A DNA stretch of 64,000 nucleotides, taken from the NCBI GenBank assembly GCA_963706715.1, contig CAVPNI010000003.1, positions 800,001 through 864,000 of the forward strand, in the 5' to 3' direction. A model generated the notes under the pieces. That model worked only from the letters and a program-made list of their open reading frames with translations. It had not been told where the DNA came from and ran no database searches. The translations under genes and the position numbers were made by a program. Source of the stretch: an uncultured Verrucomicrobiae bacterium (GTDB lineage: Bacteria > Verrucomicrobiota > Verrucomicrobiia > Chthoniobacterales > Xiphinematobacteraceae). Below are positions 5,601 to 6,915 of the stretch, piece by piece (position 1 is the first letter of the stretch; every line of letters starts with the position of its first letter).

Positions 5601-6915
5601 CTCGCCTTCCAGCCCTCACCTCACGTCATCTGGCCTATGTGATCTATACCTCCGGTTCTACAGGCACTCCTAAGGGCGTCATGGTCGAACATCGAGGGTT
5701 GGTGAATCTGGCTCAGGCTCAAATCGCTCGCTTTGTCGTTTGTGCAAATAGCCGAATTCTACAATTCGCTTCTTTTAGTTTTGATGCAAGTAGTTCGGAG
5801 GTAGTGATGGCTTTAGGTAGTGGTGCAAGCCTGTATCTGCTCTCCGACCTCTTATTCCATGATCGAAGCCAACTATGGGCGTACCTGCAACAACATGCCA
5901 TTACTCATGCGACGCTTCCCCCGGCGTTACTTCAAGGCGAAACAGATGAGTTTCTACAAAATCAAGCCCTGACACTGATTCTCGCCGGAGAGGCGCCGAA
6001 CACAGCATTACTTCGCAGTCTGGCCCGCACAAATAGCATCTTTAATGCTTATGGTCCTACGGAAACTACGGTTTGTGCGACAACTTGGCATTGCCCAGCC
6101 GACTATACCGGAGAAGTTGTGCCGATTGGTCGTCCGATTGCAAACACACGGATCTATTTGCTAGATGGCTGCGGTCAACCCGTACCGCTAGGGACGGTGG
6201 GTGAGATCTACATTGGAGGAGCTAGCGTTGCCCGCGGCTACCTAAATCAACCCGAGCTGACTGCTGAACGCTTCCTTGAAGATCCCTTTGCTGAAGAAGC
6301 TGGTGCACGCATGTACCGCTCCGGAGATCTTGCCCGCTATCTACCTGATGGCAACATTGAATTCCTGGGTCGTAACGATGAGCAGGTCAAGATCCGAGGC
6401 TTTCGCATCGAACCGGGCGAAATCGAGGCCCGTCTTATTGAGCACCCCGCCGTGCGCGAAGCCTGCGTTCTGGCTTTAGGCGAAGAGAGAAACAAGCGCC
6501 TCATTGCCTATGTGGTGACCGAACCCGACGACCAGCTACCGGCAATACTGCGCACTTTCTTAAGCCGCCTCCTGCCCGAATACATGGTGCCGACTGCCTT
6601 CGTTCGACTCGACGCCTTCCCCTTAACCCCCAACGGCAAACTCGATCGCCGTGCCCTGCCCGCCCCGGATGGAGAGGCTTTTGCCCGCCGTGCCTATGAA
6701 GCACCCATTGGCCCAATTGAAACCGCACTGGCCGAGATCTGGACTGAGCTACTTGGAATCGATCGCATCAGCCGTCACGATTCCTTCTTTGAACTCGGCG
6801 GCCATTCCCTGCTCGCTGTGCGACTCCTTGAGCGCCTGCGCTGCCGTGGTCTGAGCCTAGCAATCCGCGATCTCTTCCAGTCGCCGACTCTCACGATGCT
6901 AGCCCAGAGCCTGAG
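2618..6915 (+). other. NRPS module 1: starter C + formyltransferase C-terminal-like + partial C + A (code DASTIAAVCK, Tyr-type) + T
   Basis: FDASSSE / HATLPP / LILAGE / NAYGPTETTVC aligned by eye to GrsA PheA; boundaries approximate. Confidence 0.75.

Follow-up and report, generated by a model that had tools for sequence, protein, structure and literature searches.

Two near-identical adenylation pockets in one verrucomicrobial NRPS assembly line differ by a single nucleotide at GrsA position 239

Introduction

Can a single base set the substrate of one module apart from that of another in the same NRPS assembly line? This question is raised by a pair of adenylation (A) domains encoded in a 64,000-nucleotide stretch of DNA from an uncultured Verrucomicrobiae bacterium (the window). 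The six codons at positions 5783-5800, in the A domain of module 1 (A1), read GAT GCA AGT AGT TCG GAG, and their counterparts at 37785-37802, in the A domain of module 11 (A11), read GAT GCA AGT AGT TGG GAG. The 201 bases displayed around these hexacodons hold no second difference. A first-pass annotation of the window had proposed that the two domains are the same across the specificity core apart from this base, that the variable residue corresponds to position 239 of GrsA, and that one base change after a duplication re-specified a module. Here, we describe the two domains, the extent of their near-identity, and the substrates and course of events that may be predicted from them.

Results

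Architecture of the assembly line

The window carries two NRPS genes on the forward strand. Gene 1 (2618..13444, + strand; 3608 aa) was delineated from the ORF list and Pfam. Gene 2 (13428..43829, + strand; 10133 aa), delineated in the same way and by its nine A3 motifs, encodes modules 4-12 followed by two thioesterase-type domains. Across both genes there are 12 A3 motifs, and the DNA forms a 12-copy repeat family at a spacing of about 3.2 kb. Pfam searches of both genes returned recurring Condensation, AMP-binding, AMP-binding_C and PP-binding domains and the two terminal thioesterase-type domains; the tail of gene 2 contains two GxSxG serines. The AMP-binding stretches were recovered as 3+5+5, with A8 counted twice because the query was cut at 28427, which splits this domain.

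In gene 1, three AMP-binding (PF00501, E = 2.3e-267), three AMP-binding_C (PF13193), three Condensation and three PP-binding stretches were found. The gene begins with an N-terminal condensation (C) domain, which is followed by a Formyl_trans_C-like stretch, about 250 residues without a family, and modules 1-3 in the arrangement A-T, C-A-T and C-A-T; the N-terminal region ahead of A1 is unusual for a first module. The N-terminal Condensation domain is complete (residues 38-458, Pfam). The best NCBIfam matches of this first C domain (2618-5122 region) are the C domains of MxcG (8.6e-76) and EntF, which we assume to be of a type that accepts aryl-carrier-bound donors. The Formyl_trans_C-like stretch occupies residues 486-583 (Pfam, 4.3e-6), and its match to ArnA is weak. 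The 251 residues that precede A1 have no family match. They were considered as a C-domain remnant, and this candidate was set aside after a BLASTP comparison with C4 of the cluster returned no match (E = 0.21).

A C domain that precedes the first A domain and a pair of thioesterase matches are traits of lipopeptide-type systems, yet the first C domain fits MxcG and EntF best. The two-gene, 12-module layout is thus described here as a putative lipopeptide-type assembly line. A regular-expression search found the motif HHLxxxxGD at the N-terminus of 7 of the 11 internal C domains. These include C2 (HHLLATKGD, 7106..7132, + strand) and C12, downstream of module 11 (HHLLATKGD, 39108..39134, + strand). 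No separate E domains were found in the two NRPS genes. We take this motif to mark dual epimerisation/condensation (E/C) domains, and the putative C-domain subtypes are assigned from it only. On the same understanding, the motif in C2 would predict that residue 1 is epimerised.

A1 spans 5165..6649 (+ strand), from the C-A linker WNETQ to the A10 motif NGKLDR, and has the specificity code DASTIAAVCK. A11 spans 37167..38651 (+ strand), as placed by motif coordinates and by alignment to the GrsA structure 1AMU, and has the code DAWTIAAVCK. Searched against the PDB, A1 matched LgrA (E = 7.8e-258) and 1AMU (E = 3.7e-134), placing it among NRPS A domains. A domains are delimited by conserved core motifs, and those known as A3 (SGSTGxPKG), A5 (NxYGPTE), A7 (YxxGD), A8 (GRxDxQVKIRGxRIE) and A10 (NGKxDR) are all intact, at equivalent coordinates, in A1 and A11.

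A single mismatch in the pocket-forming segment

To what extent are the two domains the same? Comparison of the window with itself at an offset of 32002 showed that C5796 versus G37798 is the sole mismatch within 498 bp, namely 5696..6193 (+ strand) in A1 and 37698..38195 (+ strand) in A11; identity extends for 100 bases on the left side of the mismatch and for 397 on the right side. The proposed identity of the specificity core apart from one base is therefore correct at the level of the assembly. Divergence resumes on both sides: the left flank (5181-5695) contains 23 mismatches in 515 bp and the right flank (6194-6840) contains 23 in 647 bp. This flank rate of 3.96% (46/1162 bp) predicts 19.7 mismatches for a tract of 498 bp, and the probability of observing one or none is 4e-8. 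The tract runs from just past core motif A3 up to just before A6 in both domains, and exactly two full-length copies exist in the 3.04-Mb, four-contig genome.

At the protein level, A1 and A11 differ at 13 residues over roughly residues 856-1377 of gene 1; of these differences, S1060W alone lies between A3 and A6. Over gene-1 residues 1010-1200, 189 of 191 residues match their A11 counterparts. The mismatch lies in frame in the codon TCG (5795..5797, + strand), which encodes Ser1060 of gene 1, and in the codon TGG (37797..37799, + strand), which encodes Trp8124 of gene 2. The other 165 of the 166 codons in the tract match, with no synonymous difference. The tract includes all nine variable Stachelhaus positions, and the A1 and A11 codes differ at position 239 alone, so that the single non-synonymous difference in the tract falls on the main specificity residue. 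The tract allows 1494 single substitutions, 371 of them synonymous, and exactly one is the change from Trp to Ser at position 239. Thus, this residue is not where one would expect a random error or a neutral mutation to leave the sole difference.

These counts bear on whether the difference is biological at all. The same picture could arise from an error of consensus or polishing, or from a strain polymorphism that was placed on one repeat copy, with both modules in fact carrying the same residue. The region is indeed highly repetitive, with exact repeats of up to 1796 bp, and searches of genomes, contigs, proteins and metagenomes did not find a second genome with either allele. Against an error, the two NRPS ORFs, 41.2 kb in total, contain no frameshift or stop, which argues for an accurate consensus. 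Cross-mapping between repeats would tend to erase differences, not to create them, and a context-dependent base-calling error would probably strike both copies, since they have the same local context. A random error would give exactly the Trp/Ser substitution with a probability of 1/1494. We consider an artefact of this kind very improbable.

The pocket segments lie in a mosaic of exchanges between modules

In a window-by-window search, A11 is the nearest partner of A1 only from about 5124, in the C-A linker, to about 6750; in search windows 5700 and 5850 it is the only partner. Upstream of 5150 and 37150, the C-A linker region is module-specific, and most positions there disagree between the two copies. 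Beyond about 6750, the nearest sequence to T1 and C2 is that of module 8/9 at an offset of 22450, often with 100% identity. Each of the 46 flank mismatches that separate A1 from A11 involves at least one allele that is also present in other modules, and for 32 of the 46 this is true of both alleles; in the right flank, A1 repeatedly has the allele of A8. Since the nearest partner shifts along the module and flank alleles are shared with other modules, A1 and A11 are not related by plain duplication. Of the first-pass proposal of one base change after duplication, the single-base difference stands and a simple duplication does not.

Other module pairs contain exact runs of 586, 1041 and 1796 bp. 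The 1041-bp repeat (7552-8592 versus 30002-31042, offset 22450) pairs C2 with C9, and the 1796-bp repeat (13947-15742 versus 33150-34945, offset 19203) pairs C4/A4 with C10/A10. Along its full length, the A domain of module 4 is 99.8% identical to that of module 10.

The assembly line thus has a mosaic structure, which appears to have been generated by recent intra-cluster conversions. For A1 and A11, the contrast between 1 mismatch in 498 bp and 46 in 1162 bp, together with flank variation that is common to the paralogues, is the pattern expected of an intra-cluster conversion tract. The near-identity of the two cores is best read as the result of recent gene conversion or recombination. By this comparison, only the A3-A6 segment appears to be specific for the type of substrate, and the remainder of the module appears to be homogenised among modules.

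We interpret these observations as follows. Recent recombination or gene conversion inside the cluster would have made the A3-to-A6 pocket segments of modules 1 and 11 identical. A later single transversion at the second base of codon 239 would then have left Trp in A11 and Ser in A1. We regard it as probable that such a recent conversion, followed by one transversion, split a Tyr-type module 1 from a Phe module 11.

Alignment to GrsA places the variable residue at position 239

The 120-residue pocket region of A11 was compared with the PDB using phmmer, and the top matches were TycA (5.9e-23) and GrsA, 1AMU (4.9e-22). The 1AMU alignment begins at chain residue 225 and continues without a gap through FDASSWE / FDASVWE, which assigns the variable residue to GrsA position 239. 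This gap-free alignment to Trp239 of 1AMU agrees with the position given in the first-pass annotation. Codes taken from the 1AMU alignment are DASTIAAVCK for A1, DAWTIAAVCK for A11 and DAWTIAAICK for GrsA. A11 is the same as GrsA at 9 of 10 positions, with Ile330 of GrsA replaced by Val, and therefore has a Phe code of the GrsA type, DAWTIAA[IV]CK. A1 has Ser1060 in the place of Trp239, and its code is of the DAST[IV]AAVCK type.

The codes of the other ten A domains are of different kinds. A2 and A9 have DLTKVGHVGK, which we take to be Asp-like, and A3 and A6 have DFWNIGMVHK, which we take to be Thr-like. A7 (DATKVAEVGK) and A12 (DITKVGEVGK) are presumably Asn-like. A4, A5 and A10 have DAFVFVGTFK, and A8 has DLYNHALTYK. 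The codes of A7 (24903-26160) and A12 (40866-42120) differ at positions 236 and 301. The DNA of these two domains is just 85% identical, so their divergence is older than that of A1 and A11.

Predicted substrates of modules 1 and 11

What would a Trp/Ser difference at this position mean for the substrate? In GrsA, Trp239 makes a T-shaped aromatic contact with the substrate ring, according to the sections of PMC10467612 that deal with this residue. The same sections report that GrsA-W239S has a 100-fold higher KM for Phe, that kcat/KM for Phe falls from 340 to 4.1 min-1 mM-1, and that the variant favours para-substituted Phe, with Tyr preferred when all proteinogenic amino acids compete (PMC10467612). 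In its part on W239S, a review gives the preference for Tyr over Phe as about threefold (PMC11355689). The earlier statement that W239S opens Phe-activating domains to para-substituted Phe/Tyr analogues is consistent with these data. For the Trp-containing code, the relevant part of a study of Planktothrix AerB describes DAWTIAAV as a product-confirmed Phe code (PMC10744761), which supports the annotation of DAWTIAAVCK as a Phe code.

The A11 pocket, DAWTIAAVCK, would accordingly resemble that of GrsA, with the floor residue packing edge-to-face on the phenyl ring of Phe. The A1 pocket, DASTIAAVCK, would have a deeper and more polar floor with room for a para-hydroxyl. We take DASTIAAVCK to be a Tyr code, in the Stachelhaus/NRPSpredictor tradition. 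That Phe codes are set apart from Tyr codes at position 239 is reportedly textbook knowledge from Stachelhaus et al. 1999. In the open full-text literature, we found no paper that states either ten-letter code, or DASTIAAVCK as a code for Tyr; searches of open full texts with the eight-letter code stems gave DAWTIAAV for Phe as the sole useful match. The accessible portions of the haereogladin/burriogladin and rhizomide/holrhizin papers tie none of the relatives found here to a known Tyr or Phe position.

Since GrsA-W239S prefers Tyr, the best reading is a predicted Tyr at module 1 and a predicted Phe at module 11. Module 1 would load Tyr, or possibly other para-substituted Phe, and module 11 would load Phe. 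GrsA-W239S is also a poor enzyme, so A1, as a one-step Trp-to-Ser mutant, may work slowly or accept several substrates instead of being a clean Tyr domain.

This last point leads to an alternative in which the base difference is real and recent, but neutral or slightly harmful, and in which A1 is relaxed or weakened, not cleanly re-specified. Module 1 would then incorporate a Phe/Tyr mixture or operate at lower flux, and the change may be lost again in the next gene conversion. The engineered variant is in keeping with this, being inefficient and broadened to several para-substituted substrates in the pertinent sections of the GrsA study (PMC10467612), and natural point mutations in A domains are said to yield promiscuous variants often in the corresponding part of a 2026 mini-review (PMC13500794). 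The lack of synonymous differences in the tract indicates that the mutation is young, and two genomes of about 0.9 Mb in the genus may hint that selection is sometimes weak. On the other side are the neutral odds, which are 1/1494 for the Trp/Ser exchange at position 239 and 27/498 for a change in any of the nine code codons. In addition, DASTIAAVC occurs naturally in 35 of 113 members of the family described below, which suggests that a Ser pocket works well in this scaffold family. We consider a relaxed A1 rather unlikely.

The opposite possibility is that selection maintains this one nucleotide as a specificity island in the face of homogenising conversion, with Tyr placed at position 1 of the product and Phe at position 11. 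One event is not enough to prove retention by selection, and we put this forward tentatively, as possible but below an even chance.

Direction of the change

Which of the two codons is ancestral? A total of 782 domain hits, from relatives in the protein set and from genome-contig and metagenome loci, contained 113 domains with the code DA.T[IV]AAVC. Of these, 52 have DAWTIAAVC and 35 have DASTIAAVC. Thus, a Trp-to-Ser change at position 239 leads from one common code of the family to another. De-duplication left 99 distinct sequences, which together with A1 and A11 gave 101 pocket regions for a quick, unrooted tree calculated with residue 239 masked.

A1 and A11 pair in this tree (SH-aLRT 96), and their sister group (95) consists of eight Burkholderia gladioli rows, each with Trp. 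These rows are near-duplicates that count in effect as one or two independent sequences, and their branch is long (0.5). The next clade outward is mostly Ser (13 of 15 rows). The Ser/Trp label changes 15 times over the tree, with at least four changes forced by well-supported branches, indicating that the switch between Trp and Ser is recurrent in nature. TCG accounts for 90 of the 708 Ser codons (12.7%) of both NRPS genes. A Ser ancestor would have been obliged to use this rare codon, which favours a change from TGG to TCG. Taken together, a Trp ancestor with TGG changing to TCG in module 1 is weakly favoured, and it is the most probable direction of the proposed transversion.

In the reverse case, Ser (Tyr-type) would be ancestral, and module 11 would have changed from TCG to TGG, converting a Tyr module into a Phe module. 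The mostly Ser clade just outside A1/A11 and B. gladioli is compatible with this, as are the unrooted state of the tree and its 15 label changes, since both directions occur in the family. The immediate sister rows, all Trp, and the ancestral use of TCG that this direction entails count against it, and we hold the reverse direction to be improbable.

Relation to known systems

A1 and A11 belong to the same fold family as GrsA and TycA, and the pocket of A1 is that of GrsA-W239S except for Ile330Val. The TycA variants 7ywj and 5n81 in the PDB have Ser in the column of position 239, like A1. GrsA W239S (TycA W227S) is an engineered substitution; here the Trp/Ser pair is natural and occurs in two modules of one assembly line. 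There are further differences from these enzymes. The pocket regions of A1 and A11 are only about 40-50% identical to that of GrsA, and GrsA and TycA sit in an A-T-E initiation module, in contrast to A1 and A11, which sit in C-A-T modules before putative dual E/C domains.

A few substitutions in the code are also known to change or broaden the substrate in the A1 domain of ApnA from the anabaenopeptin pathway and in McyB and McyA from the microcystin pathway, as set out in the respective parts of PMC13500794 and PMC3640908. Those cases concern orthologues in different strains, usually with several substitutions, whereas A1 and A11 are paralogous modules that differ in one of 166 codons. According to the section of the mini-review that covers it, intra-BGC gene conversion is very common (PMC13500794). 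The mosaic resembles NRPS concerted evolution with specificity islands, in that the N-terminal part of the A domain, A6-A10, T and C are homogenised. The difference from the islands of other NRPSs is that the one in A1/A11 has shrunk to one nucleotide. Closer parallels are the metagenomic NRPSs P0104, P0110 and P0112, in which DAWTIAAVC and DASTIAAVC domains are neighbours in one protein, as here; their neighbouring pockets are 79-80% identical, compared to 189 of 191 residues for A1 and A11. Switching between Trp and Ser at position 239, W239S engineering and intra-cluster conversion are already known, and A1 and A11 show no new mechanism. What appears particular to this pair, judged from the sequences compared, is that the island is of minimal size, a single nucleotide.

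A1 and A11 form a near-isogenic control, of natural origin, for one of the most familiar engineering mutations of A domains. The two domains have the scaffold, the second shell and the type of the downstream C domain in common and differ in one pocket residue. They therefore bear on how much of a Phe-to-Tyr switch one residue delivers in a scaffold accepted by evolution, and they would be a clean test case for specificity predictors. The cluster also combines a point mutation with gene conversion, a route that the mini-review, in its treatment of the subject, rates as much rarer than recombination (PMC13500794). If the selected-island reading is true, this would be a minimal natural re-specification of an A domain, in which evolution took the W239S step of the engineers.

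Relatives and genomic context

Searches for relatives covered genomes, genome contigs, proteins and metagenomes, and found neither an orthologous cluster nor a second strain with either allele. Four other genomes of the same genus gave no DNA match. A DNA search of 41 genomes matched 10, including the source genome itself, and the best foreign match was 69% identical over 257 bp. The best relative in the genome-contig search has 67% amino-acid identity. In a set of 5.8 billion proteins, the best match was 70% identical over the pocket, and gene 1 was a singleton. An exact 32-nt pattern permitting either allele had 0 matches in metagenome contigs, where the closest relative is 62% identical. 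In a collection of about 15 billion proteins, three housekeeping proteins encoded in the window form singletons at 90% identity, and a fourth was not found.

The NRPS region (2618-43829) has a G+C content of 52-56%, compared to about 47% in the genome as a whole and 42-49% in the housekeeping genes on either side (ilvD, M16 peptidase, ispD, gltX, aroE and dnaJ). The nearest protein relatives, at 60-70% identity, are from Xenorhabdus/Photorhabdus, Mycetohabitans, Mycoavidus and Burkholderia gladioli. From its composition and relatives, the NRPS cluster looks horizontally acquired. Two single-contig genomes of the same genus, rated 99% complete, are about 0.9 Mb in size, compared to 3.04 Mb here.

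Two further ORFs in the window have no Pfam or NCBIfam match. One (45658-47322, + strand; 554 aa) lies just downstream of the NRPS genes after a 1.8-kb gap of low G+C, and the other (52180-53727, - strand) encodes 515 aa. Finally, positions 2763-2867 of the same contig, near the contig start, match the A-domain tract weakly at the DNA level (70%), which suggests a second NRPS locus in this genome.
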